DNA of 64,000 nucleotides, from the NCBI GenBank assembly GCA_012729015.1, contig JAAYDY010000072.1:8920-72919 (forward strand), in the 5' to 3' direction. Made by a program: the position numbers and the translations under genes. The notes beneath the pieces are model-generated. The model did not search any database, had not been told where the DNA came from, and saw nothing but the letters and a program-made list of their open reading frames with translations. The stretch comes from Phycisphaerae bacterium (GTDB lineage: Bacteria; Planctomycetota; Phycisphaerae; FEN-1346; JAACEH01). This document shows positions 44,997 through 61,488 of this stretch, piece by piece; positions within the stretch are counted from its first letter, which is position 1; every line of letters begins with the position of its first letter.

Positions 44997-45251
44997 CGGC
45001 GTAGGGCTGATTGGCCGCCTTCAGTTCCGCCGACATCGCTTTGAACCTGGCTCGAAGCTGCTTCACTCGGGATTCCTCTTACGGGGTGCCTGCCCATTGT
45101 GCGCGTCCGGAGTGTGCCCGTCAACAAGCTGCCAAGGACTGTTGGAGACGGCGGTTGCCATGGCGACTGGTACGGGCTATCATCACTGGCTATCATCAGC
45201 AGCCTGTCGGGTTGTGTTATTGCGTATTGCTGCAGAACGAAGAGGTTTCAG

Positions 45252-46803: not shown

Positions 46804-47163
46804 ATGGCCTCATGTGATCGCGAGGAACTCGCCAGGCTGGCGCAGCTTATCGAGCAATGGGTCGATCTTGACGTGGAATGTGACGCGAAGGCACGCCTCC
46901 GACGAAAGATCGATGTCCTGGGCCGGGCGTGCGAACAACTGCGCATTGCGTTGCGCCATGTCGATAACGCACTCGAATACGACGAGTTCATCCGCGGCCA
47001 ACTTGAGGTGACAGATGATGCCCTGCATTATCGTGTGGCCACGGCACCACCGACTCGGGCGATCGAGTTCACCCGACCAAGTCAATATCAGAGCAAGCTT
47101 CTTCTCTTCCTCCTGATCTACCACCGTCCCGGCGACCGAGTCATCGATATGGGATGTTCGTGA
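46804..47163 (+). CDS. Hypothetical protein (119 aa)
   Basis: ORF 46723..47163, trimmed to MASCDREELARL.... Protein-like helical composition, convergent with pnkp. No motif recognised. Confidence 0.35.
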   Translation: MASCDREELARLAQLIEQWVDLDVECDAKARLRRKIDVLGRACEQLRIALRHVDNALEYDEFIRGQLEVTDDALHYRVATAPPTRAIEFTRPSQYQSKLLLFLLIYHRPGDRVIDMGCS

Positions 47164-47516
47164 ACCAGTTAGCACGAATCTGTCAGCCCGATGCCGATGT
47201 TCTCTCGACGTTTGAAGGAGTGCTGCAGGAGGCACACGGCCTGCTGCGTAGGTACTGGGCCGTGCTTGTGGACTCGTCAGTGTCTGTGGCCGACCGCCAG
47301 CGAAGCAGCATGGCCTTGATTGCTGAACTCGACAAGAGGCCTGGCATAGAACGGTTCAGGCCCGTTTCCGCAAGGTTGATCGGGGCATGTTTGAGATTGT
47401 CTCGCGGTAGCAGCAGCACTCAACGCAGCGCCCCGGCCATTGACGTCGGGAGGCTTCACTTTCGGCGGACGGCCAACGGGAATTGTGACAATGCAGGGCG
47501 CAGCCGGATAGTGCAG

Positions 47517-50144
47517 TTACAGCCGCGGGTCGACCGGCTCGCTTTCCATCGCCAGAACGCCGAAGACGCACTCGTGAACGCGGCGCAGGGGCTCGTGGCG
47601 GACGAAGCGCTCCAAGGCCTCGATGCCCAGGGCGAACTCTCGCAGGGCCAGCGAACGCTTGGTGTGCAGTCCGCGCGACCGCAGCCGCTCCAGATTCTCC
47701 GGTGTGGTGTATTCCGGCCCATAGATGATCCGCAGGTACTCGCGTCCGCGGCACTTCACTGCCGGCTGGGCCAGGCCCCGCTTGCCCCGAGTGATGAAGG
47801 CCATCGGCTTCACGACCATCCCCTCGCCGCCCCGGCCGGTCAGCTCCAGCCACCAGTCGGCGCCGGCGGCCTGACTGGTCTCGTTGGTCACGTTAACGAC
47901 TTTGTAGGGGGTAGCCAGAAACAGCCGCGTGTCGTGGCGGCAGACCTCGGCCAGCGTGTCCATGTGCCAAACGTGATCGCGGTCGACATGCACCGCGCCC
48001 TCGGTGGCCATCAGGTGGAACGGCGCCAGTTTCAGGTCATCGAGCGACCGGACCGGCCAGCAGTATTGCCGATAGGCGGCCACGTACTTCTCAATGGCCC
48101 GCTCGCGCTCACTGTAGCGGCTGAGCAGCCGCTCCACTTCCTCCAAGTCCGCTATGCCCGGTCCGGCCCGCTCCGCGGTTGCCTGGAGTGCCGCCACAGC
48201 CTCCGGCAATGCCGCCCGGCCTGCCGCGCCCACGGCGGCATACTGCGTTCGCACCAGTTCCTGGGCCTTGGCGGACCACGGCATCAACTCGCAATCGAGG
48301 CAGGCCCACGTGGTCTCGAACTTCGCCCAGAAGTCCGCCGCGTCCATCGCGCCGCGCACGCGGTCCAGGAGGGCGGCCTCCAACTCGGGATCGTCGAAAA
48401 ACCGCCGCCCGGTGCGCGTGTAAACAATACCTGCCTCGCCGTCGGTGACGCCGAAGCGCTTCTGTGCTGCCTCGGCATCACGGCAGACAATGACCACGGC
48501 CCGCGAACCCATGTGCTTCTCTTCGCAGATGACCTGCGGCGTGCCGACCGAGCGATAGTAGGCGAAGGCTTCGGCCGGATGCTCCAGAAAGCCGTCCGCG
48601 TGGCTCGTCTCGCTGGGCGACATCGTCGGCGGCAGGTACACGAGCCACTTCGGATTCGCGGCGAAGCGGCTCATCACCTCCAGCGCCGCTGTGGCATTCT
48701 CCTCGCGCACGGTGACCGCGCCGCGCAGCCGCGTGGCGATGATCCGCTTACCGAGCACGTCCTCGGCGTCCAGAAGGTCGTCCTGCGTCTGTTGGGCCGA
48801 CAGGGCCGGTGCCTCGTGCCCCTCGGGCAGGAACGGCCTCACGGCCTCGCAGTACGTCTGCCCCGCCGGCACCGAGACGAACTCCTTCTCCGGGTAGCGC
48901 AGGGCCGTCAGGCTCCCGCCGAAGACGCAGCCGGTGTCGATGTTGACCGTGCGGTTGAGCCATTCGGGTTCCGGCACCGGCGTGTGGCCGTAGACGACGA
49001 TGGCCGGCCCGCGATACTCCGCCGCCCAGTTGTAGCGGACCGGCAGGCCGAACTCGTCTGTCTCGCCGGTCGTCTCGCCATAGAGAGCGAACCCGCGGAC
49101 CTTGCCGGAGGCGCGACCCTGCATCTCCTGCCGCATGCCGGCGTGGGCCACGACCAGCTTCCCGTCGTCGAGCACGTAGTGGCTGACCAGGCTGTCGAGG
49201 AACTCGCGGGCCTGTTCGACGAACCGCTCTCGTGTTTCGTCCGGCAGGGCCTCGACCTGGGCCAGCGATTCGGCCAGGCCGTGCGTGATCTGCACGTCCT
49301 TGCCGCCGAGCTTGCGCATCAGTTTCATATCGTGGTTGCCCGGCACGCAGAGGGCGGCGCCGGCAGCGACCATGTTCCGCACGAGCCGCAACGTCTCGAC
49401 GACGCGCGGCCCGCGGTCCACGAGGTCGCCGAGGAATGCGGCCTTGCGGCCGCCCGGATGACGGTAGAGCCGCCGACCCCACACGGCATCGTCTTGTGGC
49501 GAGTCAGGGGAGGCCGGCAGTTCCGCGGCCTCGTAACCGAGCTGAGCCAGCAGCGCTTCGAGCTCATCGCAGCAGCCGTGCACATCGCCGATGATGTCGA
49601 ACGGCCCGTGCTCGTCGCGTTTGTCGTTCCAGAGCGGCGTCCGGGTCAGTGTGGCCGCCTCCACCTCGTCGGGCGACTTGAGGATGAACACGTGCCGGAA
49701 GCCCTCGGGCCCCAAACCGCGAAGCGAACGCCGCAGCTGCGACCGCTGACCGCGGATAACGTGCGGCCCGAAGTTGCGGTCCGACCGCTCACGGTTCCGC
49801 TCTTGGCAGACCTTCTCCGGCAGATCGAAAACGATGGCCACCGGCAGTACGTGGAACTCTCGCGCCAAGGCCACCAGGGGCTTCCGCGCTTCCGGCTGCA
49901 CGTTCGTCGCGTCGACAACCGTCAGGCGCCCCAGGGCCAGCCGCTCCCGGGCAATGCTGTGCAGCAGGCGAAACGCCTCGTTCGTCACCGCCTGATCGTT
50001 CTCGTCGTCCGAGACCATCGCCCGGCAAGCATCGCTGGAGAGTACCTCCGTGGGCAGGAAGTGCTTCCGCGCGAACGTGCTCTTGCCCGACCCTGACGGG
50101 CCGATGAGGACAACCAACGAGAGCTTTGGAAGTTCCATCTGCAT
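47517..50144 (-). CDS. pnkp: Bacterial polynucleotide kinase-phosphatase-ligase (RNA repair)
   Basis: ORF 47517..50204, trimmed to MQMELPKLSLVVLIGPSGSGKSTFARKHF (kinase P-loop). Phosphoesterase motifs are GDVHGC, GDLVDRGP and GNHD. The ligase lysine motif is ICEEKHMGSRAVV. Confidence 0.9.
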   Translation of the reverse strand: MQMELPKLSLVVLIGPSGSGKSTFARKHFLPTEVLSSDACRAMVSDDENDQAVTNEAFRLLHSIARERLALGRLTVVDATNVQPEARKPLVALAREFHVLPVAIVFDLPEKVCQERNRERSDRNFGPHVIRGQRSQLRRSLRGLGPEGFRHVFILKSPDEVEAATLTRTPLWNDKRDEHGPFDIIGDVHGCCDELEALLAQLGYEAAELPASPDSPQDDAVWGRRLYRHPGGRKAAFLGDLVDRGPRVVETLRLVRNMVAAGAALCVPGNHDMKLMRKLGGKDVQITHGLAESLAQVEALPDETRERFVEQAREFLDSLVSHYVLDDGKLVVAHAGMRQEMQGRASGKVRGFALYGETTGETDEFGLPVRYNWAAEYRGPAIVVYGHTPVPEPEWLNRTVNIDTGCVFGGSLTALRYPEKEFVSVPAGQTYCEAVRPFLPEGHEAPALSAQQTQDDLLDAEDVLGKRIIATRLRGAVTVREENATAALEVMSRFAANPKWLVYLPPTMSPSETSHADGFLEHPAEAFAYYRSVGTPQVICEEKHMGSRAVVIVCRDAEAAQKRFGVTDGEAGIVYTRTGRRFFDDPELEAALLDRVRGAMDAADFWAKFETTWACLDCELMPWSAKAQELVRTQYAAVGAAGRAALPEAVAALQATAERAGPGIADLEEVERLLSRYSERERAIEKYVAAYRQYCWPVRSLDDLKLAPFHLMATEGAVHVDRDHVWHMDTLAEVCRHDTRLFLATPYKVVNVTNETSQAAGADWWLELTGRGGEGMVVKPMAFITRGKRGLAQPAVKCRGREYLRIIYGPEYTTPENLERLRSRGLHTKRSLALREFALGIEALERFVRHEPLRRVHECVFGVLAMESEPVDPRL

Positions 50145-50152
50145 TTCGTTTC

Positions 50153-50740
50153 TCACGTAGCCGTGCGGCTGGTCTTCTTGGGTGCAATGTCCCTGTGGCA
50201 GCACTCCAACAGATACTCGGCGTTGCCTCCGTCATCATGCCAGGCATCCGTCTTGTCGATGTTCCGATAGCCTCGTTTACTTTCATCTCGCACAAGCACG
50301 TTGCCGATGCCGGGCGTTGTTGCCTCAACGAAGGGCGCTGTCTGGAGCAGAATTCGTTCTATCGTCCACGAGTAGATCAGCGGCGGCATGCCCGGCAAAG
50401 CGTGCAGGCGTTCAAAATAGAAGAAGGGATCAATACCAAGGCCAATCCTTCCCGTCACCCAGTCCCCGGCGGCCAGTCCTTCCAGCGGCGATGATTCTCG
50501 ATAGGCCAGCAGGCCAAAGTCGAGCACCCACACGTCCTTCTGGCACAGAACAATGCGTGCCACCACATCATAGTAGCAGTCCGTTACCCAGGTGCAACGC
50601 GGCTGCGACTGCTCGGTGAGTTCCAGCGTTTTTGCCCAGAATTCGAGAGCCACCTCGCACTCGTCGCCCTTGGCGAAGTCGCCGTAGTTGCCGTCCTGAA
50701 CGATCCATGACGCAAGGTTGAGCTTCCAAGGGTCACTCAT
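50153..50740 (-). CDS. Hypothetical 195-aa protein immediately upstream of pnkp
   Basis: This ORF overlaps the preceding gene by 8 nt and ends 8 nt before the pnkp start. No motif recognised. Confidence 0.5.
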   Translation of the reverse strand: MSDPWKLNLASWIVQDGNYGDFAKGDECEVALEFWAKTLELTEQSQPRCTWVTDCYYDVVARIVLCQKDVWVLDFGLLAYRESSPLEGLAAGDWVTGRIGLGIDPFFYFERLHALPGMPPLIYSWTIERILLQTAPFVEATTPGIGNVLVRDESKRGYRNIDKTDAWHDDGGNAEYLLECCHRDIAPKKTSRTAT

Positions 50741-51506
50741 ACGTGTGCCTCCTGATTCGCAGCAACAGGTCGTTCATCGCTCCCCGAGCCGACGGCTGCT
50801 CCGGCAGGTGGCTTTCCTGACCGGCGCGTTCCAACTCCGCCGTCAGCCGCTCGTACTCTCGCTCGTAAAACTCCAAGTCCGCGGCGGCCAGGCAGCCACG
50901 CTCGCCGCCCTCGACCTTGCGGGCAACCAGGTCGGCGATCTGCGGCAGGCGGAACGTCTCGTTCAGCCGCAGCAGGTTCGCCTCGACCTCGCCGCTCTGC
51001 ATCAGGTGGATGCCGGTCAGCAGCACGCGGTAGACGTAGAGAAGCGGCTTGACGCGGGGCGGCGCGTCCTTCCGGAACAGGTTCCACTGCGTCCGGGCGA
51101 AGCCGAGGTAATGGTGCACGTGGTGCCGCGTGATGCAACCGCGGCCGAGGGCCTTGAGTTCCTCGTGCTCCGGCGTCGTGTGGACCACCAGTGGCGAATA
51201 GAGTTGCTCCAGCACGTAGCCGTTCTTCTTCAGCATCAGCCGCATGAACTTCCGCACGTCGTGTGTCACGAAGTCCAGCTCGATGTCGCCCGGTGCCGCC
51301 GGCTTGTGCGACACCTCGACCGTCTCCTGCGGGGGATCGAGGCCCAGAAACGCCTCTGCCGGCAGCACGTGCGCCCCGCGCAGATCATAATCCGAATCCG
51401 CCGACGGAAACCCATACAGGTGCGCCCCGCTGACCGTGACGAAGAGCAGCGGGTGCGACTGCTCGCTGGCAACAGCAGATAGACGGGCGTTGGGAATATC
51501 GGTCAT
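50733..51506 (-). CDS. Pol-beta-superfamily nucleotidyltransferase of the RNA-repair-associated (RlaP / Nuc-transf) type, copy 1
   Basis: ORF 50733..51584, trimmed to MTDIPNARL... (its ATG overlaps the upstream stop). VSGAHLYGFPSADSDYDLRGAHV is a G[SA]xxxG...DxD-type NTase motif. Paralogous to 51987..52910. Confidence 0.65.
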   Translation of the reverse strand: MTDIPNARLSAVASEQSHPLLFVTVSGAHLYGFPSADSDYDLRGAHVLPAEAFLGLDPPQETVEVSHKPAAPGDIELDFVTHDVRKFMRLMLKKNGYVLEQLYSPLVVHTTPEHEELKALGRGCITRHHVHHYLGFARTQWNLFRKDAPPRVKPLLYVYRVLLTGIHLMQSGEVEANLLRLNETFRLPQIADLVARKVEGGERGCLAAADLEFYEREYERLTAELERAGQESHLPEQPSARGAMNDLLLRIRRHTYE

Positions 51507-51976
51507 CTTGGCTCTTCCTCTCGCCCAATGGCAAAACCGCAGCATCGACAGGTCTTGCGATACTCGGGACACAAGACACCGCACTGGGGGCAGCGTCGCT
51601 CGGTGACACCCTCATACGCCTTCTCCCAGCGTTCGCGGTCAACGCGTTCCTGCTCTTCTTTTCTGGCCCTTGTCGCCCTGGCCGCCTCCGCCATTTCCTC
51701 TGGCGTGGCCGTAGCCACCAAGTGGCTCCAGACCGTTCTAAGGATGACACTTGATGTCCCGTCTGCGTCAGAAGCACCGCATGCCTCCCGCAACGGACTT
51801 GTCTCGTCCCATAGGCCCAACTCGCTTCTGATGGCCATTCCTAATGAGAAGTGAAGCCCGATGAGATCTTCTTCCGCCATCCCGCGAACCAGCGCAATGT
51901 TCGAAGCATCCTGCGCCCATTTCCACGAGAGCACCTCGCGAACAGCTTCTTCGATGGTCCTCGGCTTTCCCCGCAT
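51503..51976 (-). CDS. Hypothetical protein with C-terminal zinc ribbon (157 aa)
   Basis: ORF ending ...RRCPQCGVLCPEYRKTCRCCGFAIG. Coupled (ATGA) to the downstream nucleotidyltransferase gene. Confidence 0.5.
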   Translation of the reverse strand: MRGKPRTIEEAVREVLSWKWAQDASNIALVRGMAEEDLIGLHFSLGMAIRSELGLWDETSPLREACGASDADGTSSVILRTVWSHLVATATPEEMAEAARATRARKEEQERVDRERWEKAYEGVTERRCPQCGVLCPEYRKTCRCCGFAIGREEEPR

Positions 51977-51986
51977 AGGAACCCCC

Positions 51987-52910
51987 TCAACGTGCCATAC
52001 TCCGCCGCGCCCTCACCAGGAACGCATTGGCCGCCTCGTAGTCCGGGCGGTCGGGCAAGGCGGTCGTGCGGAACGCCTCGTCGAATTCCTTGTGCAGCGA
52101 CAGCCGCCACTCGTTGACCTCCGACCATGGCGTGCGGCCGTCACGGATGGCGATCAGGCGGTCCTTGTGCTCGGTCACCTCGACCGGCACCGCGCCGGTC
52201 CGCAGCACGCCGATCCCCGACAGGAGCAGCCGCACCAGGTGCATGGCGTGCTTCCACTTGATGCGGCCCTGGTTCCGCAGGTCGCGCTCCAGCTTCTTGA
52301 ACTGGCTCATCACGTAGGCGTTGTACGTCTGGTAGACAAGCTTCGACAAAAACGCCCCGCGCATGTCCAGCAGTTCCTGCCCGAGCGGCGTCACATGCTC
52401 CACCAGCGGCGTATGCAGCACCTCCAGAATGTTTGGATTGGCCTTGAGCGCCAGCACCAAGAACTTCTGGAGCTCCCAGTAGCACTCGTCGGCGTCCTGG
52501 TCTTCAATCTGCTCCGGCACGCCATACAGCGACCAGTGCAGCTCCGCCGGCGGCAGGTAGACCCCGCGGCGGTCCACGTCCGATTCGTCCGTCGCCAGCC
52601 CGTATGCTCGCGAGCCGATCACGCAGCGATAGATCACGTATTGCCGCAAGTCGCACTCGGCCAGCCGGTCGCGTGACCGACCCGGGTCAAGGTACTGTTT
52701 CAGCACCTCGAACTCCCCGCGCCGCAGCGACACCTCTTCGCCGCCCGGAAACCGCACGCGATAGCTGTGCTCCGGATCGGCCGGCGCGCGGACGATCACC
52801 CCCATGGCCCCGGCCGCGCGCGGCCCCTTCCTCGATGCGCTCTCGCCCCGCGTCACCACGGCCGTGCCGACGGGCAGGATCGCCGGGAGATTGTCTCGTT
52901 CGCTGGTCAT
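51987..52910 (-). CDS. Pol-beta-superfamily nucleotidyltransferase (RlaP / Nuc-transf type), copy 2, with about 90-aa N-terminal extension
   Basis: VIGSRAYGLATDESDVDRRGVYL plus a downstream helical region that aligns with copy 1 (KANPNILEVLHTPLV versus KKNGYVLEQLYSPLV). Confidence 0.65.
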   Translation of the reverse strand: MTSERDNLPAILPVGTAVVTRGESASRKGPRAAGAMGVIVRAPADPEHSYRVRFPGGEEVSLRRGEFEVLKQYLDPGRSRDRLAECDLRQYVIYRCVIGSRAYGLATDESDVDRRGVYLPPAELHWSLYGVPEQIEDQDADECYWELQKFLVLALKANPNILEVLHTPLVEHVTPLGQELLDMRGAFLSKLVYQTYNAYVMSQFKKLERDLRNQGRIKWKHAMHLVRLLLSGIGVLRTGAVPVEVTEHKDRLIAIRDGRTPWSEVNEWRLSLHKEFDEAFRTTALPDRPDYEAANAFLVRARRSMAR

Positions 52911-53671
52911 GTGTTCAGAGGGACCTCATCCCAATCACGCTCGTAACCGCAAACCCAGTTCAAACCCCAGAGTCTTTCCTGGGCGATACTGGTCGCCCGA
53001 CGATATTCCTGCGGCGACAAGCCCGCATAGGGCTTGCCGAATGCCGGGAAGTCATTGTCGATTGCGATGAACCAGCCGTTTGCCTCACCGGTTCTGGCCG
53101 CCGACACGACGTATTCTGTGTACTTCTCCGGCGGAGTTGGCTTGGTGTACTTGTTTCGGTCGGCCTGTATTTGCGTCGTTCGTGACCTCCAGAGCCAGAA
53201 CTCCGAAATCTCGCGAGCCTCGTCGACCTCATCCTCCGACCTGTAGGCGGCAGTCTTGAGGAAGTTCGCCGTCGGCTCTCCTGTCTGCGGAATGACGTTC
53301 ATAATATCGAGCGGCCGGAATTCTTTGTCGTAGGGCGGCATCATGCCCAGTAGCCCCAGCGACCACGCGATGACACCGGCCGACTCAACACGCCAAGAGC
53401 CATTCACCCGCTCACGCTCAGTCCACGACCCCACTGGCCGGCCCATAGGGGGGCGTTCTTGGGCAGAGAACCGCGGCATGATTGGCTCGCGCTCCAGCCA
53501 GGCCATCAAGTCCGCTGCCTTCGTGCGTGCCTCAGCTTTCTCGGCCTCGGTTCCAGCGCTGGCCATTTCCCCTTCGAAGTAGGCTCGGGCGCCGATGCAC
53601 ATCAGGCAAAGCAGCCTTCCAGCAGCATCTCCCGGCGACGGTGGCTCGGGCTTCCAGTCTTGCTCGTTCAT
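52907..53671 (-). CDS. Hypothetical protein, DUF4272-like
   Basis: ORF 52907..53827, trimmed to MNEQDWK... (its ATG overlaps the hen1 stop). SWRVESAGVIAWSLGLLGMMPPYD resembles DUF4272. Its stop overlaps the next ATG. Confidence 0.45.
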   Translation of the reverse strand: MNEQDWKPEPPSPGDAAGRLLCLMCIGARAYFEGEMASAGTEAEKAEARTKAADLMAWLEREPIMPRFSAQERPPMGRPVGSWTERERVNGSWRVESAGVIAWSLGLLGMMPPYDKEFRPLDIMNVIPQTGEPTANFLKTAAYRSEDEVDEAREISEFWLWRSRTTQIQADRNKYTKPTPPEKYTEYVVSAARTGEANGWFIAIDNDFPAFGKPYAGLSPQEYRRATSIAQERLWGLNWVCGYERDWDEVPLNT

Positions 53672-55149
53672 GTGCCATCTCCACATCGCTGAACAGCCGT
53701 GAACACCGCCATCTGCGTCGGCGGGCCGAGGGCTGGGTCCTCGGGGCCGACGGGCAGGAAGCGGACAGTATAGCCGAAACGCTCGGTCACGGCTTCGGCC
53801 CAGGTGCGGAACTCCGCCCGCGTCCACTCGAAGCGATGGTCCTTGTGCCTCAGCGGAGGCGAGACGATAACGGTGTCGGCCGCTGCACGTTCACCCTTAG
53901 TCTCCGCGGGCTTCGCGTCGCCCGCCAGATTCGCCCACAAGACGTTGTACTCTCGGTTCGGCGTCGTGAGGACAATCGTCCCCGGCCGGGCGCACTCGAA
54001 GAGCACGCGCTCGAAGGCCGCCAGGCGCGGCGGATCGAGATGCTCGATCACCTCGACCACGGCTGCGGCGTCGAAGCCTTCCAGCCGCCGGTCGCGGTAC
54101 ATGAGCGATCCGTGCAGCAGCCGCAGGCGGTCCTTCTGATGCGGCGGCAGGCGGTCGAGGCGCAGCCGATCGGCGGCGATCTCCAGCGAGCGGATCGAAA
54201 CGTCGAGGCCGATGATCTCGTCAAACTGTTTGTCCTTCATCAACTCGCGCACGAGGTTGCCCTCGCCGCAACCGAGGTCGAGCACGCGCCGGGCCCCGCT
54301 CGCCCGCAGCGCCGCCAGCACCGTGCCCAGACGTTCTTCGTTGAGGCTGATGCGAGCCTCGGCCGAGTCCTCCTCGCCGGTGGACGCCTCGTCGTCCAGC
54401 GCTGCGACTTCAGGCTCGTCCTCCTGGGCCAGTTGGGCCAGGGCTTGCCGGGCCAGGCTCGGCGCGTGCTTCAGGTAGCGGAAGGTGATGGCCTCCCGCT
54501 CCGGATGCGAGGCCAGCCAGCCTTCGCCCTTGGCCAGCAGGTTCTCCATCTCCGCCTGGCCGACGTAGTAATGCTTGCGATGGTCGAAGACGGGCACGAG
54601 CACGTAGAGGTGCGTGAGCAACTCCTTGAGTGTGGTTGTCTTCGACAGCTCCACCGTGAAGTACGGGCTGTCGCCCCAGTCAGCGAACGTCTCGTCCAGC
54701 GGGTGCGGCGCGACGGTAAGGGCGTAGCCGAGCGGCTCGAAGACGCGCCGCAGGAACGCCTCGCCTCCGCGGCACGGCAGCACGGCGATGCGGGCCACCA
54801 GCGGCAGCGGCGTGTCGACCAATTCGGGCCGCTCTTTGCTCCGACCCTGGAGGGCCGAGCCGAATACCTGGGCGATGGCCACGCTGAGGAACGAGGACGC
54901 GACGAACGGCCGATCGTTCACGTACTGGTCGAGCAGCCGCTCGGAGAACCGCGATGGCCCGCGCACGATGCCGACCGGGTCGACGTCCAGGAGCAGCGCC
55001 GCCGTACAGTTCTGAGTCGTCGCCTCGGGATAGAACACGTGCGCCCGCCCGAAACTCAGATCGAACGTCTGGCACCGCGCCGGGTTCTTGTGCAACAAAT
55101 AGCCCACGTCGATGGCGGGATGATGCGTTGTTGAGATGGTCAAAAGCAT
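53668..55149 (-). CDS. hen1: Bacterial Hen1 3'-terminal RNA ribose 2'-O-methyltransferase
   Basis: 493 aa. MLLTISTTHHPAIDVGYLLHKNPARCQTF is the characteristic bacterial Hen1 N-terminus, and RVLDLGCGEGNL is the SAM-binding motif. Confidence 0.9.
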   Translation of the reverse strand: MLLTISTTHHPAIDVGYLLHKNPARCQTFDLSFGRAHVFYPEATTQNCTAALLLDVDPVGIVRGPSRFSERLLDQYVNDRPFVASSFLSVAIAQVFGSALQGRSKERPELVDTPLPLVARIAVLPCRGGEAFLRRVFEPLGYALTVAPHPLDETFADWGDSPYFTVELSKTTTLKELLTHLYVLVPVFDHRKHYYVGQAEMENLLAKGEGWLASHPEREAITFRYLKHAPSLARQALAQLAQEDEPEVAALDDEASTGEEDSAEARISLNEERLGTVLAALRASGARRVLDLGCGEGNLVRELMKDKQFDEIIGLDVSIRSLEIAADRLRLDRLPPHQKDRLRLLHGSLMYRDRRLEGFDAAAVVEVIEHLDPPRLAAFERVLFECARPGTIVLTTPNREYNVLWANLAGDAKPAETKGERAAADTVIVSPPLRHKDHRFEWTRAEFRTWAEAVTERFGYTVRFLPVGPEDPALGPPTQMAVFTAVQRCGDGT

Positions 55150-55153
55150 GGAA

Positions 55154-55444
55154 TTACCCTTCGCTCACACTGATCACGGCATCGTCCTGCAGCTTCGCCT
55201 TCTGGAGCGCCTTCTTTATGATGCTCTTGGCCTCGGCGAGATGACGATTGCGGCTCAAGTAGACGTAGACAACATCGCTCGGCGGATGATCGATATCGCT
55301 CAACTTCCCCAACCCGCCGTTGACAATTGGTCCCCAGATATCCTCCGCAAACCAGAATACACGGAAGTAGTAGTCATTCGAACGACCGGGAGGAAATCTG
55401 ATCTCGATTGCCTCGGCCACAACGTGCCTCCTGACCGCAGCCAA
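55154..55444 (-). CDS. Hypothetical small protein (96 aa) between rtcB and hen1
   Basis: ORF with lower GC and protein-like composition. It has 12-nt and 4-nt gaps to its neighbours. Confidence 0.45.
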   Translation of the reverse strand: MAAVRRHVVAEAIEIRFPPGRSNDYYFRVFWFAEDIWGPIVNGGLGKLSDIDHPPSDVVYVYLSRNRHLAEAKSIIKKALQKAKLQDDAVISVSEG

Positions 55445-55456
55445 CCTCGGGAACCA

Positions 55457-56869
55457 CTAGTCCTCCGGCCGTTCGCCTGCGGGGGCCATCTTCACGAGCC
55501 GCGGATCGAAGCGGGCCACCGGCTCGACCAGGTCGCGCTGAGCGGCCATCACCTCGTCGATGTCCTTGTACGCCATGGGCACCTCGTCGAGGCCGGCCGA
55601 GAGCAGGTCCACGTTGTGGTCGGCCAGGAACTTCTTCGCCTGGTGCCAGGTGAACGTCTCCTTGGCCTTCGTGCGGCTCATCTTCCGTCCGGCGCCGTGG
55701 CTGGCCGAGTTCAGCGACGTCGGCTCGCCGCGACCGCGGACCACGTAGCCGGCTGTGCCCATCGAGCCGGGAATGATGCCGAGCGTGCCCGCGGCGGCCG
55801 GCGTGGCGCCCTTGCGATGTACGATGACCTGGCGCCCGCCGTGCGTCTCGCGCCAGGCGAAGTTGTGGTGGTTCTCGATGTCCAGCAGCACGTCGACGCC
55901 CAAGTGCCGGGCGATGTGCCGATGGATCAACTGGTGGTTGGCGGCGGCATAGCGGCCCATCAACTCCATGGCCGCCCAGTACTCCTGGCCCTCGGCGCTA
56001 TCGAGGTTGAGCCAGGCCAAGTGGCTGAGTTCGCGCGGCAACTCGCCGTGGCGGCCCTGGGCCAGCTTGCTGTAGTGCTCGGCGACGCCGGCTCCCGTGC
56101 CGCGGCTTCCGCTGTGCGAAAGCAGAGCCAGGTAGACGCCGGCCCTCAGGCCCAGATCGTCGCGCTCAAGCGTCAGCGTGCCATACTCCACGAAGTGGTT
56201 GCCGCTGCCGCTCGTGCCGAGCTGGCTCCAGGCCTTGTCCTTCAAGGCGATGGTGACCGGCGAGATCGTCCAGTCGTCGTCCATGACCTCATGCTGGCGG
56301 CGCTTGCGGAACGTCGCCCCGACGCCGAAGCGCGTCTCGTCCTCCAGGGCACGGACCAGCCGCCCTCGCTGACCGTCGATTGCGTCGACCGGCAGGTCGA
56401 GCACCGTCAGTTTCATGCGGCAGGCGATGTCGACGCCGACGGCGAACGGGATGACGGCATTGTCCGTGGCCAGCACACCGCCGATGGGCAAGCCGTAGCC
56501 CTGGTGGGCGTCGGGCATGAGCGCACCGGCAACCGACACCGGCAGCGAGCAGGCGTTGCGAAGCTGCCCGACCGCAGACGGCTCCAGGTCGCGGCCCCAC
56601 TGCCGCCACGGGGCCGGCTCGGTGCGCGGCTGGTAGGTAGCCTGCAATTCTGCCGAGGCGATCAGTGCCGTGGCCATCGCGCCGAAATGCTCATCCGCCT
56701 GGTGCGCAGCCGGGTCGGCGGCCACGGCGCGCACGGCCGCACGGATGGCTTCTTTATCCAGTCCCGACGCCGCAGCCGCCGCGATGCACGCGACCGAGGC
56801 CTTCATCGCCTCGCCCTTGGGCACGCCCAGGTTCCTCAACTCTCGCGGCTTCATTCCAACTCTCCTCAC
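55457..56869 (-). CDS. rtcB: RNA-splicing ligase RtcB (3'-phosphate/5'-hydroxyl RNA ligase)
   Basis: MPDAHQGYGLPIGGVLA, GSGNHF, HSGSRGTG, ENHHNFAW, IIPGSMGT and SASHGAGR. Its start overlaps the rtcA stop (ATGA); 56854 is an alternative start. Confidence 0.95.
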   Translation of the reverse strand: MRRVGMKPRELRNLGVPKGEAMKASVACIAAAAASGLDKEAIRAAVRAVAADPAAHQADEHFGAMATALIASAELQATYQPRTEPAPWRQWGRDLEPSAVGQLRNACSLPVSVAGALMPDAHQGYGLPIGGVLATDNAVIPFAVGVDIACRMKLTVLDLPVDAIDGQRGRLVRALEDETRFGVGATFRKRRQHEVMDDDWTISPVTIALKDKAWSQLGTSGSGNHFVEYGTLTLERDDLGLRAGVYLALLSHSGSRGTGAGVAEHYSKLAQGRHGELPRELSHLAWLNLDSAEGQEYWAAMELMGRYAAANHQLIHRHIARHLGVDVLLDIENHHNFAWRETHGGRQVIVHRKGATPAAAGTLGIIPGSMGTAGYVVRGRGEPTSLNSASHGAGRKMSRTKAKETFTWHQAKKFLADHNVDLLSAGLDEVPMAYKDIDEVMAAQRDLVEPVARFDPRLVKMAPAGERPED

Positions 56870-57891
56870 ATCTTCTTCGCCTCAACCTCCCACACACCCC
56901 TTGCCTCGTCAACGCAGGCTGTAATGATCTCGGATGGGAGGAACGCCTTGATCACCTCGATGTTCGTCGTCGTATGCCTGCTCGGCGCCACCGTGCGGAA
57001 CCGTCCGCCGGCGGTGGCCATCAGCACCAGCAGTTGATCGGCCAGATGCTCGCCAACGGGCACCCCCGCGGCCAGGTAGCGCCGCACTTCTTTGGCAACC
57101 TTCTCGGCCACGGCCTCGGCTCGCACGCCGTGCTGGCCGAAGCCGGTGAAGACCTCCGTCACGTTCTCGCTCTCGACCTCGATGAGCACGACGTTGCCTG
57201 GCCCGACCGGGTCCTTGACGAAGACGATGTCCGGCGGATCGACCACGAGGCCGAGCCTCTTGCCGACCACCTTCAGCTCGCGCAGGGCGATGTCCATCGG
57301 CAGTTGTGACACGATGGCCGTGGCCCGTTTACGGTGGATCTCGCCGCGTTCGACCAGTTCTAGCGGCGCGAGCTGGGCGACCGGGTCGATGGTCACGCGG
57401 AACCGCCCGCCGCCCGCCGGGTAGAAGCCGTAGCGATCCAGTTCAACGCGGACCTTCGGCCCCATGCGGCCCACCAGCGGCAGGAACGCCCGCTGGAGGA
57501 AATCGAACGGCGGCGCCCACGGATTGTGTGTGCCGCCCTCCAGGAGCAGCGTCGACCGCTCCTTGGCCACGAGCAGTGCCGGCAGCACGGTCTGAAGCAC
57601 CAGCGTGGCGCTGCCGGCCGTGCCGACGGCGAACTCGTAGTGCCCGCCGGAGACCATGCACGGCGTGAACGTCAGTTCCTGCGAGCCGATCGCATCGCCA
57701 ACAACCTCAGCCCCGCAGATGCCCTTAGCGGCCCGCACGGCCGTCAGGTGCTGGCGCAGAAGGCCCGGTCGGTCGCGTCCGGCGCGAATCTTCTCGATGC
57801 GGAATGGCTGCCCGGTGAGCATGGACAGAGCCAGGCTTGTCCGCAGGACCTGTCCGCCGCCTTCACCCATGCTGCCGTCGATGGTAATCAT
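56866..57891 (-). CDS. rtcA: RNA 3'-terminal phosphate cyclase
   Basis: ORF 56866..57960, trimmed to MITIDGSMGEGGGQVLRTSLALSMLTGQPFRIEKIRAGRDRPGLLRQHL, the canonical RtcA N-terminus. Confidence 0.9.
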   Translation of the reverse strand: MITIDGSMGEGGGQVLRTSLALSMLTGQPFRIEKIRAGRDRPGLLRQHLTAVRAAKGICGAEVVGDAIGSQELTFTPCMVSGGHYEFAVGTAGSATLVLQTVLPALLVAKERSTLLLEGGTHNPWAPPFDFLQRAFLPLVGRMGPKVRVELDRYGFYPAGGGRFRVTIDPVAQLAPLELVERGEIHRKRATAIVSQLPMDIALRELKVVGKRLGLVVDPPDIVFVKDPVGPGNVVLIEVESENVTEVFTGFGQHGVRAEAVAEKVAKEVRRYLAAGVPVGEHLADQLLVLMATAGGRFRTVAPSRHTTTNIEVIKAFLPSEIITACVDEARGVWEVEAKKM

Positions 57892-57969
57892 TGCTGCACC
57901 TGAGACACGTTGTTCATAACACTCTGAGGGGGCCGGGCCCGATTGCCCGGCCCCCATCATAGCAACTAT

Positions 57970-59070
57970 TCACAGTAAGTTAACCACGCGGTCGGCCAGA
58001 CCCTTCTCGCCGAGGACCACGTTGAGCTTCGAGTTGCCGGCCACCTTCTCCAGCACCTCCAACTCCCTGAGCCGCATCAGCACCGGGCTGTCGGCCAGCA
58101 GCCGCGCCGTGTTGGCCTGCGACCGCATGGCGGCGGTCTCCTCCCGGCGGGCGATCAGGTTGGCCTCGGCCGCCTTCTTGGCTTCGGTCACCTTGTTCAT
58201 CAGCTCCTTCATCTCGCCCGGCAGGATGATGTCCCGCACGCCCAGCGACACAATCCGCAGGCCGAACTGGGCCGCTCGCTCCTTCACGGTCGCCTCCAAC
58301 TCGCGAGCCACCGCGTCCTTGTCGGCGAGCAGCGTGTCGAGTTCCTTCGCCCCGACAATCGCCCGCAAGGCCAACTGGGCCTCGCGGTAGAGGGCCTGCT
58401 TCACATCCTCGGTCGCGGCGACGGTGAGCGGCGCGTCGGCCACCCGGAAGGTCACCACCGCGTTCAGCCGCAGGGTGACCTTGTCGGCGGTCATGATGTC
58501 CTGGCCAGCTACGTCGAGCACGCGCTCGCGCATGTCGACCTGGAAGACGCGGACCTTTCGCGAACTCTTCCAGAAGGCGTGCCGGCCCGCCGGCAGCGTC
58601 TCGGTGAAAACGCCGTCCTCGTAGAGGACACCGACGTGGTCCTCCTCGACCGTGACGATTTCCAGTGCCTCCGCCGAAGTCTCCTTGGCCACGATGGCCG
58701 CGAGTTCCTTGTGCCGGAAACGCACGGTCCGGGCGTCGACGATCTCGGTGTGAATCTTCCGCTGGCCGGTCCAGATGGCATACAGGCCCGCGCGCAACAC
58801 GGTGGCGAACCGGCCGTCGATCCAGACGAGGGCCCGCTGGTGGTCCTCGATGTCCAGCACTGTGGCCAGACCCTCAAGGGCGCCCGAGCGGACGATCATG
58901 TCGAGCTTCTCGTGGCAGAGCCACGGCGCCCGCTGCGAGACCACGTCCACGCGGACCTTGCCCGGCAGCGACACGAACCAGTGGCGGGCCGTGCCCAGGA
59001 GCCCCCGGAACTCGCCGTCCCGGAAGTACAGTCCCTTCTCGTAGCTGTGGATCTTCACGGTCTTCAACAT
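57970..59070 (-). CDS. SPFH/band-7 (slipin/stomatin-like) protein, first CDS of the rtc operon
   Basis: 366-aa ORF with AAGGGAGA as RBS. The band-7 core is DIMTADKVTLRLNAVVTFRVADA...ALRAIVGAKELDTLLADKDAV...GLRIVSLGVRDIILP. Confidence 0.85.
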   Translation of the reverse strand: MLKTVKIHSYEKGLYFRDGEFRGLLGTARHWFVSLPGKVRVDVVSQRAPWLCHEKLDMIVRSGALEGLATVLDIEDHQRALVWIDGRFATVLRAGLYAIWTGQRKIHTEIVDARTVRFRHKELAAIVAKETSAEALEIVTVEEDHVGVLYEDGVFTETLPAGRHAFWKSSRKVRVFQVDMRERVLDVAGQDIMTADKVTLRLNAVVTFRVADAPLTVAATEDVKQALYREAQLALRAIVGAKELDTLLADKDAVARELEATVKERAAQFGLRIVSLGVRDIILPGEMKELMNKVTEAKKAAEANLIARREETAAMRSQANTARLLADSPVLMRLRELEVLEKVAGNSKLNVVLGEKGLADRVVNLL

Positions 59071-59492
59071 GCTCGTCTCCCTTCTGCTTTCTTGCTGCTC
59101 TCACTTGCGATCTTCATTGACGTTCTTCATCATCTCCGCCGGCGATAGGGTCGTCCGGAGGCGGGCTGGTCGTCCGAGCCACGCAGCCTGCTTGCGGAGC
59201 GTGCTTGAGGGGCCTCGCGGGTCCGTCCTTCCGGCGGGTTCGTGCCCGCGGCCATTGCCACCGAGACTGCTGGTCGCACTGCCGCCGCACGTTGCCTGCC
59301 GGTCGGCACGAACTTCTGTGGCGCCGGTATCCGCACGCTACAGGGCATCGGACCGCGCTGCTGTCGGATGGGCGACGTGATCGGCAGCGATCCTCGTCTT
59401 CCCCCCTCCGACAGCCGGTCGGCCGCCTGCCCGCCTCCTTCGGACCAGTCTCGGGTGTCGCATCGCTGCGACGGAGCAGGTTCACAGCCTGC

Positions 59493-59564
59493 GGTTCGGT
59501 GCGGGATTCGAACCCGCAACAGCCAGATTCTGCGCCTGGTGCTCTACCATTGAGCTACCCGATC
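59493..59564 (-). tRNA. tRNA-like gene with a non-canonical anticodon loop and imperfect acceptor stem (pseudo-tRNA or regulatory tRNA mimic)
   Basis: The reverse strand folds as GAUCGGG-UA-GCUC-AAUGGUA-GAGC-A-CCAGG-CGCAGAA-UCUGG-CUGUU-GCGGG-UUCGAAU-CCCGC-ACCGAAC-C. D and T arms are perfect. Position 33 is G instead of U, the anticodon would be CAG (Leu) on a short-variable-arm body, and there are two acceptor mismatches (A2-A71, G7-A66). No CCA is encoded. Confidence 0.6.
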
Positions 59565-59740
59565 GTCTGACACCACCTTCGTCAGAACCCGTGCGCGGAA
59601 CGCGTAGGGCTGATCGCGTGGTCGCTGCCACAAGGCACACCACGAACGAAGCCCGACGTGCCGCCGGCCCGGCGGAATCAGTCTTCACTTGTCATGGAAA
59701 TCCGCCCAGGACATCGGGCGGCCTTCACGCCTGATTCTAC

Positions 59741-59757
59741 AAGCAGATGCCGTGCCA
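59741..59757 (-). promoter_or_regulatory. Sigma54 (-24/-12) promoter for the rtc/RNA-repair operon
   Basis: The reverse strand reads TGGCACGGCATCTGCTT against the consensus TGGCACG-N4-TTGCW, with a single mismatch at the first T of TTGC. It lies in the rtcR-rtc divergent region, as expected for an RtcR-dependent promoter. Confidence 0.65.
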
Positions 59758-59880
59758 CAAGTCCGAGGCAGGCAAAGAAAAACCCTAACCCGTTGCCATT
59801 CCGCAGGTTCCAACTCGCATGGCCAAGGTGGCTGTTTTGAGGCTTGCTATCTCAAATGATAAGTGGTTATCCTAGCGGCT

Positions 59881-61488
59881 ATGAATCCCAAGAAGACGGT
59901 CATCTTCGGTCTGCTGGGCACGGTGCTTGACGGGGCTGGCAAGCGCGAGGACCGCTGGCAGAAGTGGCGGCCCACGGTCTCACTCTTTCAGCACGAGGAG
60001 TTGCTCGTACACCGCTTCGAGTTCCTGCACGACGAGATCCGTGACGGCTTGGCAGGCCGCGTGGCCGCGGACATTGCCACTGTCTCCCCCGAAACGAAGA
60101 TCTGCCAGCACAAGGTGCAGTTCCGCGACCCCTGGGACTTCGAAGAGGTCTACGGCACCCTCCACGACTTCATGCACGCCTATCGCTTCGATCCGGATCG
60201 GGAGGATTACCTGATCCACATCACCACCGGCACCCATGTGGCCCAGATCTGCATGTTCCTGCTGGCCGAGTCGCGGGCCTTCCCTGGCAAGCTCATCCAG
60301 ACTGCCCCGCCACACCGCAGTCGGAGGCCGAATACCGGCAGCTATACAATCATCGACCTCGACCTGTCGAAGTACGACCGCCTCGCCTCGCGCTTCCGCC
60401 AGAAAATGCGCGACGACGTGTCCTACCTCAAGTCCGGCATCGAGACCCGCAACGCCGAGTTCAACCGCCTGATCGAGCGGATCGAGCGCGTCGCCCTGCA
60501 CTCCACGGCGCCGCTGCTGCTGACCGGACCCACCGGCGCCGGCAAATCGCTCCTGGCCCGCCGCATCTACGAACTCAAGCACCAGAGGCGTCAGGTGGCC
60601 GGACCGTTCGTCGAGGTCAACTGCGCCACGCTGCGCGGCGACGCGGCCATGAGCGCCCTGTTCGGTCACGTCAAGGGCGCCTTCACCGGCGCCGTCAGTG
60701 ACCGGCCGGGGTTGCTCCGCGCTGCCGATGGCGGGATGCTCTTTCTCGATGAGGTCGGCGAACTCGGCACTGACGAGCAGACGATGCTCCTGCGGGCCGT
60801 GGAAGAGAAGAAGTTCCTACCCCTCGGCAGCGACCGCGAGGTGGCCAGCTCGTTTCAACTGGTCTGCGGCACCAATCGCAATCTCCAGGCCGACGTCGCC
60901 CAGGGGCGGTTCAGGGAGGATCTGTTGGCCCGGATCAACCTCTGGACGTTCCGCCTGCCGGGCCTGCGGGACCGCACGGAGGACATTCCGCCAAACCTCC
61001 AGTATGAGCTTGACCAGTTCGCCCGCTCGACGGGCGCCCACGTGACCTTCAACAAGGAGGCCGCGAGCCGCTTCCTGGCCTTCGCCGCCTCGAGCGAGGC
61101 CGCCTGGACCGCCAACTTCCGCGACCTGAATGGGGCGGTGGTCCGCATGGCCACGCTGGCCCCCGGCGGACGGATCACGGTCGGGGAGGTCGAGGAGGAG
61201 ATCGCCCGGCTGAAGGCCGCTTGGCGGCGCGAGGCGATGACCGGCTCCGATGAAGACGTCCTGCGCAGGATGCTGTCCGACGAGCAGTTCGACGAGTTGG
61301 ACCGTTTCGACCTCGTCCAACTGGCCGAGGTCATCCGCACTTGCCGTCACTCGCGATCCCTGTCCGACGCCGGCCGCGCCCTCTTCGCCGCCAGCCGCCG
61401 CCGGAAGAGCAGCGCCAACGACGCCGACCGCCTCCGCAAGTATCTGGCCCGGTTCGGCATCGACTGGCACGACCTGTTCAGGGAATGA
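59881..61488 (+). CDS. rtcR: Sigma54-dependent transcriptional activator RtcR (CARF-like N-domain + AAA+ + HTH)
   Basis: ORF 59863..61488, trimmed to MNPKKTVIFGLLGTVLDGAG...WRPTVSL (RtcR-type N-terminus). AAA+ motifs are LLLTGPTGAGKSLLARRIY, GMLFLDEVGEL, the GAFTGA loop (HVKGAFTGA) and FREDLLARINLWTFRLPGLRDR. Confidence 0.9.
   Translation: MNPKKTVIFGLLGTVLDGAGKREDRWQKWRPTVSLFQHEELLVHRFEFLHDEIRDGLAGRVAADIATVSPETKICQHKVQFRDPWDFEEVYGTLHDFMHAYRFDPDREDYLIHITTGTHVAQICMFLLAESRAFPGKLIQTAPPHRSRRPNTGSYTIIDLDLSKYDRLASRFRQKMRDDVSYLKSGIETRNAEFNRLIERIERVALHSTAPLLLTGPTGAGKSLLARRIYELKHQRRQVAGPFVEVNCATLRGDAAMSALFGHVKGAFTGAVSDRPGLLRAADGGMLFLDEVGELGTDEQTMLLRAVEEKKFLPLGSDREVASSFQLVCGTNRNLQADVAQGRFREDLLARINLWTFRLPGLRDRTEDIPPNLQYELDQFARSTGAHVTFNKEAASRFLAFAASSEAAWTANFRDLNGAVVRMATLAPGGRITVGEVEEEIARLKAAWRREAMTGSDEDVLRRMLSDEQFDELDRFDLVQLAEVIRTCRHSRSLSDAGRALFAASRRRKSSANDADRLRKYLARFGIDWHDLFRE

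Follow-up and report, generated by a model that had tools for sequence, protein, structure and literature searches.

In Escherichia coli, the rtcR/rtcBA locus carries rtcA and rtcB in one string behind a sigma54 promoter, divergent from rtcR, which encodes a CARF-type sensor with a sigma54 AAA+ domain. The rsr-yrlBA-rtcBA locus of Salmonella is also RtcR-controlled, and there an RNA with a tRNA-like domain and the ring-forming TROVE/Ro60 protein precede the repair enzymes. In another group of systems, Band-7 lies next to RtcB and is accompanied by a tRNA-like RNA, the b7a-tRNA (as cited in bioRxiv 10.1101/312249), and a Band-7 gene, PaFlo8, is found inside the Pseudomonas aeruginosa rtc locus (PMC13086221). 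The Pnkp/Hen1 system of Clostridium thermocellum and Anabaena is composed of a Pnkp with three sets of catalytic motifs and a Hen1 with a ligase-activating N-terminal domain and a methyltransferase. The cyanobacterial tRNA arrays called L-arrays are co-regulated with rtcB and are associated with translational stress (PMC8421152). Here we describe an RNA-repair locus which combines features of these systems. It is situated on a stretch of 64,000 nucleotides (nt) from a Phycisphaerae bacterium (GenBank assembly GCA_012729015.1, contig JAAYDY010000072.1, positions 8,920 to 72,919 of the forward strand), and this whole stretch is referred to as the window.

The locus consists of 11 co-directional, tightly packed protein genes running from 59070 to 47517 on the minus strand, with a divergent rtcR opposite to them (Table 1). 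The encoded set comprises a Band-7/SPFH protein, RtcA, RtcB, Hen1, two RlaP nucleotidyltransferases and Pnkp along with four small unknown proteins. The locus is a real composite of known modules, and we consider it probable that three such modules work as one composite RNA-damage response operon behind a single RtcR/sigma54 switch. It shares with E. coli the divergent RtcR, the sigma54 promoter and the presence of rtcA and rtcB in one string, but rtcA comes before rtcB, a module of RNA and Band-7 stands in front, eight more genes follow behind, and RtcB belongs to a divergent, N-terminally extended subfamily. As in Salmonella, the repair enzymes are preceded by a ring- or cage-forming protein and by a structured RNA, here predicted to be under RtcR, in which one domain resembles tRNA. 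In contrast to Salmonella, Band-7/SPFH stands in place of TROVE/Ro60, no TROVE domain was matched by Pfam in any of the 11 operon proteins, and the RNA of about 540 nt has another architecture, without any Y-RNA family match in the Rfam search of the spacer at E values up to 5. With the Band-7/b7a-tRNA/RtcB systems and the P. aeruginosa rtc locus, as far as the citing papers describe them, the locus has in common Band-7 beside RtcB, a tRNA-like RNA upstream and RlaP in the operon, and the Band-7 gene, the RNA ligase gene and the tRNA-like RNA lie side by side. It differs from the systems of those citing papers in that a complete Hen1/Pnkp block is attached to the module and the tRNA-like part, which has a hypervariable anticodon loop, is only one module of a much larger conserved fold. 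Compared with C. thermocellum and Anabaena, hen1 and pnkp, although encoded on one strand, are here behind rtcA-rtcB and RtcR and are not adjacent, as a stretch of 3.5 kb with five genes, among them the two RlaP genes, lies between them. The link with the L-arrays is given by tRNA arrays ending in the RNA and Band-7 in related loci, whereas the window has no array and only a single tRNA-like module, and Band-7 is not named in PMC8421152.

A preliminary description of this DNA, made from the sequence without database searches, had assigned the families SPFH, rtcA, rtcB, hen1, DUF4272-like, nucleotidyltransferases, Zn-ribbon, pnkp and rtcR. Pfam profile search backs each of these calls, including all the hen1, pnkp and rtc assignments, and RtcA and Hen1 also pass the NCBIfam equivalog cut-offs. 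The catalytic motifs expected in RtcB, Pnkp, Hen1, both RlaP copies and RtcR are intact in all of them. RtcB, with an N-terminal extension of about 100 amino acids (aa), possesses PDAHQGYG, DIACR, GSGNHF, SHSGSRG, NHHN and SHGAGR, while Pnkp possesses the P-loop GPSGSGKS along with GDVHG, GDLVDRG, GNHD and KHMGS. The reading of all genes from 59070 to 47517 in one direction was borne out, and the number of genes, given as 12, came to 11 protein genes.

The packing of the genes was largely as described earlier. The ATGA overlaps at 53668-53671, 52907-52910 and 51503-51506 and the 8-nt overlap at 50733-50740 are present, but the overlap at 56866-56869 is GTGA and not ATGA. The remaining gaps had been put at 12 nt or less; this holds for rtcB, for which the likelier start, ATG 56854 with a GGAGAG Shine-Dalgarno sequence, leaves 11 nt, and fails for orf88, for which the likelier start leaves 36 nt. 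From rtcA to pnkp all junctions are overlaps of 4-8 nt or gaps of at most 36 nt. The gap of 78 nt between SPFH and rtcA, the widest in the string, is correct given the rtcA start at ATG 57891, which is backed by homology and by gene calls on six metagenome contigs with the identical operon (L081-L086; loci used for comparison are cited by L numbers). The gene calls on these contigs were used for start checks and agree with the corrected starts. Altogether the same operon is present in 14 metagenome contigs, and the closest relatives of its Hen1 are planctomycete. As the gene after pnkp (about 46804-47163, plus strand) is convergent, the string ends at pnkp.

Table 1. Features of the RNA-repair locus, in the order of the predicted transcript after rtcR (positions in the window).
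Feature	Size	Position	Strand	Evidence
rtcR, sigma54-dependent activator with RtcR (CARF-type) sensor domain	535 aa	59881..61488	+	Pfam RtcR E 1.8e-82, Sigma54_activat E 1.3e-49
Predicted sigma54 -24/-12 promoter TGGCACGGCATCTGC (GG-N10-GC)		59743..59757	-	One mismatch to TGGCAC-N5-TTGC
Conserved structured noncoding RNA, 5' part of predicted operon transcript	~540 nt	59143..59686	-	nhmmer and covariation
tRNA-like module ('b7a-tRNA' type), called tRNA-Leu(CAG)	72 nt	59493..59564	-	ARAGORN; Rfam tRNA 46.4 bits
Band-7/SPFH protein (slipin/stomatin-like), ~135-aa N-terminal extension	366 aa	57970..59070	-	Pfam Band_7 E 2e-31
GC hairpin, 11 bp, GGGGGCCGGGC / GCCCGGCCCCC, 6-nt loop, just 3' of SPFH stop, no U-tract		57928..57955	-	Folding
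rtcA, RNA 3'-terminal phosphate cyclase	341 aa	56866..57891	-	Pfam RTC E 1.4e-79 and RTC_insert; NCBIfam NF003246 453 bits (cut-off 352 bits)
rtcB, 3'-P/5'-OH RNA ligase	465 aa	55457..56854	-	Pfam RtcB E 3e-89, 300 bits
orf88, orphan small ORF	88 aa	55154..55420	-	Likelier start GTG 55420 (AGGAGG Shine-Dalgarno, 36-nt gap); 96 aa from TTG 55444
hen1, RNA 3'-terminal 2'-O-methyltransferase with N-terminal Pnkp-ligase-activating domain		53668..55149	-	Pfam Hen1_L E 1.6e-109 and methyltransferase domains; TIGR04074 687 bits (cut-off 340 bits)
DUF4272 protein	254 aa	52907..53671	-	Pfam DUF4272 E 7e-13; GC3 0.71
RlaP nucleotidyltransferase, copy 1	307 aa	51987..52910	-	Pfam RlaP (PF10127) E 2.8e-43; GS...DxD motif
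DUF6794 protein with C-terminal zinc ribbon	157 aa	51503..51976	-	Pfam DUF6794 E 1.5e-12; GC3 0.64
RlaP nucleotidyltransferase, copy 2	257 aa	50733..51506	-	Pfam RlaP (PF10127) E 5.9e-55; G[A]...DxD motif
orf195, unnamed family of ~195-aa all-beta proteins		50153..50740	-	352 homologues without Pfam domain; GC3 0.70
pnkp, trifunctional 5'-kinase / 2',3'-phosphatase / ligase, last gene	875 aa	47517..50144	-	Pfam AAA_33, Metallophos, PNKP_ligase, E 7e-185

The likelier start of rtcR is ATG 59881, in agreement with the 535-aa gene calls on L081-L086, while the longest open reading frame (ORF) begins at GTG 59863. Its orientation confirms the earlier statement that rtcR is divergent from the repair genes, and the protein carries GAFTGA and Walker A motifs. 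RtcR is activated by tRNA fragments, and in Salmonella by RNA fragments ending in a cyclic phosphate, according to studies cited in PMC10159003. In the scan of the window, TGGCACGGCATCTGC was the sole sigma54 match with one mismatch in an intergenic position. At up to two mismatches 70 matches were found against 70 expected by chance, and the other sigma54-like matches inside the operon did not exceed the chance level of this motif scan. The motif is placed 43-72 nt upstream of the RNA core in the window and in L087, L099, L116 and L127, all of which are RtcR-linked, and it was found at this relative place in none of the loci without RtcR. The site facing rtcR had been named as the only obvious promoter, and one credible sigma54 promoter was indeed obtained, the sigma70-like matches being judged weak. 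Internal terminators, which would split the cluster, did not stand out, as the string contains 8 terminator-like sites against 8.9 expected in shuffled sequence.

The 810-nt spacer between rtcR and SPFH contains a structured RNA which the preliminary description overlooked and which is the most novel part of the locus. Its 5' domain is followed by the tRNA-like module, then by a hairpin and finally by a 3' domain of about 290 nt, which is closed by a 15-bp long-range helix between GGAGGCGGGC near 59438-59429 and GCCCGCCUCC near 59166-59157. The two strands of this helix change in step across loci, for example to GAAGACAGA with UCUGUCUUC. To follow the RNA in other genomes, 80 loci from a Band-7 scan of metagenome contigs were used. 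The whole window leader matched by nhmmer upstream of Band-7 in about 60 of them, beyond the tRNA part alone, although the Band-7 proteins of those loci are only 55-68% identical. The upstream sequence was long enough for the comparison in 67 loci, and about 60 of these have the RNA together with Band-7. The length of the conserved element ranges from 415 to 667 nt, and its sequence blocks flank the tRNA module on either side. Most of the loci with a sufficiently long upstream region have a tRNA or tRNA-like gene about 400-590 nt ahead of Band-7. Within the window the RNA is single copy (E 1e-71), and it is absent from the retrieved Hen1 loci.

RNAalifold on 47 sequences gave 16 helices with 102 pairs, 73 of them with compensatory changes, and 88.8% of the pairs were canonical compared with 36-42% when the 3' partners were slid by 1-3 columns. 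For the 3' domain (alignment A1, 32 sequences) 39 pairs were obtained, 29 with double compensatory changes. Here pairing reached 92.4% against 78.6% in shuffles and 31-42% when slid, with a covariation score of 0.51 against 0.24 in shuffles, and none of 500 shuffles reached any of these measures. In Rfam 15, only the tRNA family (RF00005) reached its threshold on the spacer; all other matches had E values of at least 0.015 and were far under the gathering scores.

The tRNA-like module itself is called by both ARAGORN and the Rfam tRNA model, which raises the question whether it could be an ordinary tRNA-Leu(CAG) gene, with the conservation of its flanks reflecting a promoter or untranslated region instead of a structured RNA. 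Bacterial tRNA-Leu has a long variable arm. The module has a variable region of 5 nt, G33, no CCA and mismatches in two of the seven acceptor pairs, and compensatory changes support 16 helices in its flanks. Across the 47 loci there is hardly any variation in the D arm, the T arm and the anticodon stem, but the anticodon loop is hypervariable, with 43 different loops in 47 loci, U33 in only 30 of 47 and some loops of only 5-6 nt, so that the 'anticodon' at the orthologous position differs in almost every locus. The module is thus not a decoding tRNA and not a genuine tRNA-Leu, and an ordinary tRNA gene at this place is very improbable. Burroughs and Aravind reportedly predicted, in 2016, a 'b7a-tRNA' associated with Band-7, and the tRNA-like module corresponds to it. 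A 2018 preprint states that the b7a-tRNA resembles authentic tRNA and had no experimental validation (bioRxiv 10.1101/312249). No description of the larger fold around the tRNA module was found in the literature compared, which did not include Burroughs and Aravind 2016 itself, and literature searches on b7a, or on Band-7 in connection with tRNA arrays, gave no additional results.

The module is also variable in its number and surroundings. Instead of a single tRNA-like element, L132 (9224-9928), L139 and L166 have four or five between rtcR and Band-7, of which two overlap slightly (by a few bases); this lineage has multiplied the module. Arrays of 10-39 tRNA genes end at their 3' side in the RNA and Band-7, with no Rtc nearby, in L092, L097, L103, L114, L119/L120, L134, L136, L160 and L161. 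In L109 the tRNA array comes after rtcB.

The Band-7 protein encoded behind the RNA shows no hydrophobic anchor or transmembrane-like stretch in its sequence. Its residues 175-351 match the cage-forming stomatin and QmcA proteins in the PDB (E about 1e-23), and these relatives form cages of 16 to 26 subunits. No close relative was found in viral contigs, and PADLOC gave no match for Band-7 or for any accessory gene. Citrobacter freundii (L176:3966-7919) and E. coli (L177:4472-6925) possess a distant relative, 32-36% identical and annotated as 'slipin family protein', whose gene forms a pair with one for a nucleotidyltransferase. This pair is behind a sigma54-type motif and a leader of about 280 nt with GUGUUCCG and the T-arm-like GGGUUCGAUUCCC. 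In Citrobacter, rtcR is divergent from the pair; in E. coli, 1625 of 5426 complete genomes have the pair, situated between rluF and lysC. The Citrobacter leader was not detected by the nhmmer model of the RNA, and the similarity of the enterobacterial leaders is hence one of short motifs seen by eye only.

The end of the Band-7 gene is the place where the unity of the operon is most open to question. The 78-nt gap before rtcA folds at -38.3 kcal/mol with a z score of -3.6, and none of 200 shuffles was as stable. Nearly all related loci have a strong hairpin at this position behind the Band-7 stop, in each case with an unrelated sequence and without a U-tract. Because of this position-conserved hairpin, the earlier claim of a single transcript is not safe if one uniform transcript is meant. 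The next gene after Band-7 is convergent in L094, L103, L120, L131, L141 and L153. It follows that the RNA and Band-7 form an autonomous two-part module which was recruited to Rtc operons. Two or more expression units could therefore be imagined, in which the sigma54 promoter drives mainly the RNA and Band-7 up to a stop or processing site at 57955-57928, while rtcA to pnkp are read from an internal, possibly constitutive promoter, leaving Pnkp/Hen1 outside RtcR control. The position of the hairpin at the largest gap of the string and the autonomy of the RNA and Band-7 elsewhere agree with such a division, and so does a sigma70-like match with an extended -10 (TTAACT-16-TATGAT, 57983-57956) just before rtcA. 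Its -35-like hexamer, however, falls in the conserved C-terminal RVVNLL coding sequence of Band-7, and of the related loci only the close relative L087 retains TATGAT. The hairpin, which lacks a U-tract, was not flagged by the terminator scan. Furthermore, L099, L116, L151 and others with only rtcA/rtcB downstream have the same hairpin before Rtc enzymes which are expected under RtcR, so that it is not a full stop in general. We regard separate expression units as unlikely. The hairpin is most likely a 3' stabiliser or a partial stop by which the amount of the RNA/Band-7 segment is adjusted relative to that of the enzymes.

How common the joining of Rtc with Pnkp/Hen1 is was assessed from the 80 closest Hen1 loci among one-genome-per-species contigs. 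Pnkp/Hen1 had been described as normally a separate pair, and this agrees with the presence of pnkp, mostly directly after hen1, in 73 of the 80 loci and of rtcB directly upstream of hen1 in only four (L010, L013, L064 and L067). The order hen1-RlaP-RlaP-pnkp was observed in 8 of 80, with a ninth contig ending inside an RlaP gene just upstream of hen1, and the RlaP pair between hen1 and pnkp is also found in Hen1 loci without Rtc. The fusion is not unique but a rare minority architecture that recurs, in L132, L087, L010 and L055. L132 has the order RtcR, tRNA-like elements, SPFH, RtcA, RtcB (64% identical), Hen1 (61%), RlaP, RlaP, Pnkp, with overlaps or gaps of at most 16 nt except for a SPFH-rtcA gap of 283 nt which holds a hairpin. 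L010, with the same RtcB subtype, shows RtcB-Hen1-X-Pnkp. L087 (3460-5506), the closest relative (SPFH 81% identical), shows RtcR, RNA, SPFH and RtcA followed directly by Hen1 without rtcB; the contig ends inside hen1, and this would be an RtcR/RNA/Band-7/RtcA operon relying on the Pnkp ligase alone. In one Hen1 locus of the 80, L055 (5766-15697), rtcA-rtcB are divergent from rtcR, and rtcR is followed after 130 nt by hen1-RlaP-RlaP-pnkp on the same strand, so that Pnkp/Hen1 has here been linked to RtcR independently and in a second manner. In this survey of neighbourhoods rtcR thus co-occurs with hen1 and pnkp in L132 and L055, and with hen1 in L087. The relatives of RtcB at 61-65% identity are in L010, L132 and L166, and the strings of L116, L166 and L109 stop at rtcB.

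The scarcity of the fusion leaves room for the view that the adjacency is an evolutionary accident in a 'repair and conflict island', where the genes are co-transcribed without cooperating and selection acts only on shared regulation or horizontal transfer. The mutually exclusive end chemistry of the two pathways, the four of 80 loci with rtcB directly upstream, the lack of rtcB in L087 and the variable cargo genes inserted at junctions all fit this view. It does not readily account for the same core order having arisen or persisted in lineages with proteins only 61-64% identical (L132), for the joining of most genes by overlaps or short gaps in both the window operon and L132, or for rtcR directly upstream of hen1 in L055. 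In addition, the core genes share one GC3 class, which indicates that the fused core is not a recent patchwork. A mere accident of neighbourhood is therefore quite doubtful, and the composite operon under RtcR is preferred.

In such an operon, 2',3'-cyclic phosphate ends of tRNA or rRNA cleaved by ribotoxins would activate RtcR, and the sigma54 promoter would switch on the whole string. The transcript would start with the structured RNA followed by Band-7/SPFH, which together would probably form a ribonucleoprotein scaffold or a tRNA mimic by analogy to Ro60 (Rsr) with YrlA RNA, and the hairpin after Band-7 would probably raise the yield of RNA and Band-7 relative to the enzymes. The 2',3'-cyclic-P and 5'-OH ends are substrates of both RtcB and Pnkp, whose chemistries exclude each other. 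The coordinated multi-step response proposed earlier was an extrapolation, and since the two enzymes compete for the same ends, parallel routes are a better reading than one linear pathway. In one route, RtcB would reseal breaks directly (3'-P/5'-OH), with RtcA regenerating cyclic or 3'-P ends. In the other, Pnkp would heal the ends to 3'-OH and 5'-P, Hen1 would 2'-O-methylate the 3' end and the Pnkp ligase would seal, after which the repaired site would resist re-cleavage. The two RlaP enzymes may add back 1-2 nucleotides to trimmed 3'-OH ends for the Pnkp/Hen1 route. RlaP adds 1-2 NMP to RNA 3'-OH ends, and the 3'-OH product suits 5'-P ligases and not RtcB according to its authors (bioRxiv 10.64898/2025.12.29.696909); the position of RlaP inside the hen1...pnkp block, in the window as well as in loci that lack Rtc, fits this, as such a product suits the Pnkp ligase. 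In Anabaena, rtcB and hen1-pnkP are both induced under translational stress (PMC8421152), which makes joint deployment of both routes physiologically plausible.

Several points weigh against the composite operon. The hairpin after SPFH could end most transcripts, and the sigma70-like match before rtcA offers a possible internal start. The RtcB score is under the NCBIfam equivalog cut-offs. As L087 has no rtcB, the 'dual ligase' state is not required in the lineage. The kinase and phosphatase of Pnkp destroy RtcB substrates, so joint expression is not obviously cooperative. Finally, it is from the sequence that we infer that the genes are co-transcribed, that RtcR controls the distal ones and that each of the biochemical steps takes place.

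A more far-reaching idea is that the RNA and the soluble Band-7 form an undescribed cage or ring ribonucleoprotein, comparable to Ro60-Y RNA or vaults, in which the tRNA-like arm with its fast-evolving anticodon loop acts as a bait or a sensor of toxins which cut anticodons. Once cut, the arm would supply RtcR with its cyclic-phosphate signal, and both repair branches would be recruited. This idea is speculative and we hold it to be rather unlikely. If true, the fused operon would be a self-priming detect-and-repair device, and the same ribonucleoprotein would guard the large tRNA arrays adjoining it in other genomes.

Four genes of the string are outside these modules. The preliminary description had counted five uncharacterised partners; SPFH and the two RlaP nucleotidyltransferases are already described RNA-repair partners, and four real unknowns are left. 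Their GC3 is 0.64-0.71 compared with 0.85-0.92 in the core genes. None of the four is present in L132, the sister fused operon, and none was found among the 160 loci retrieved with Hen1 and Band-7. The junctions of L132 and L010 hold other inserts, namely a 225-aa zinc-ribbon protein, a 315-aa protein and a 543-aa HEAT-like protein. Owing to their low GC3 and their absence from L132, which has different inserts, the four genes wedged into the junctions look like later inserts. Homologues of the unknowns occur in toxin-antitoxin, nuclease or mobile-element contexts. For orf88 (GC3 0.70), no Pfam, NCBIfam or PADLOC match was obtained, and its one homologue, 45% identical, is in an unrelated context. 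Homologues of the DUF4272 protein adjoin HNH nuclease, AbiE and integrase genes and not RNA-repair genes, and no relative of it was found in the PDB. The protein described as Zn-ribbon proved to be a DUF6794 protein with a C-terminal CxxC...CxxC motif. Its ORF is uncalled on L081-L086, where a hole of 480 nt is left in spite of the Pfam match, a GAGGGGG Shine-Dalgarno sequence and the ATGA overlap with the next gene.

The fourth unknown, orf195, has a near-identical copy labelled Phycisphaerae bacterium. Its AlphaFold2 model is all-beta with a pLDDT of 94. The PDB sequence search was empty, and Foldseek gave no significant match (best E 0.08 at a TM score of about 0.2), with weak hints of S1/cold-shock-type barrels. 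In three of six contexts, members of this family are beside RNA-end enzymes: Pnkp here, RtcB in L167 (6601-8669) and a 2H (LigT-like) phosphoesterase in L174 (5001-6963). On this slender basis the family may be an unrecognised accessory family of RNA-end-processing systems.

Long antisense ORFs are present on the plus strand opposite pnkp (47154-50096, 980 aa), hen1 (53482-55134, 550 aa) and rtcB/rtcA (55136-57037, 633 aa). ORFs of this kind, for which no other evidence speaks here, commonly arise where the coding strand has a high GC3. Beyond pnkp, the window contains a SUFU-family protein (43698-44789, minus strand), a NERD-nuclease protein with zinc ribbons (45099-46538, plus strand) and a low-GC ORF of 119 aa (46804-47163, plus strand). 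SUFU-family proteins of this type have reportedly been described as toxin immunity proteins. This gene content suggests that the operon borders a conflict- or defence-type region.

The RlaP preprint (bioRxiv 10.64898/2025.12.29.696909) left open the problem of 3'-OH ends which RtcB cannot join, and in this locus the RlaP pair adjoins a ligase able to join such ends. The leader RNA is associated with a family of cage-forming proteins and with tRNA arrays and, if not already described, represents a new class of large structured RNA in bacteria. About 30% of complete E. coli genomes may contain a reduced relative, which would open it to experiments. The recurrent placing of Pnkp/Hen1 behind RtcR provides a testable hypothesis, that both repair routes answer the same damage signal.

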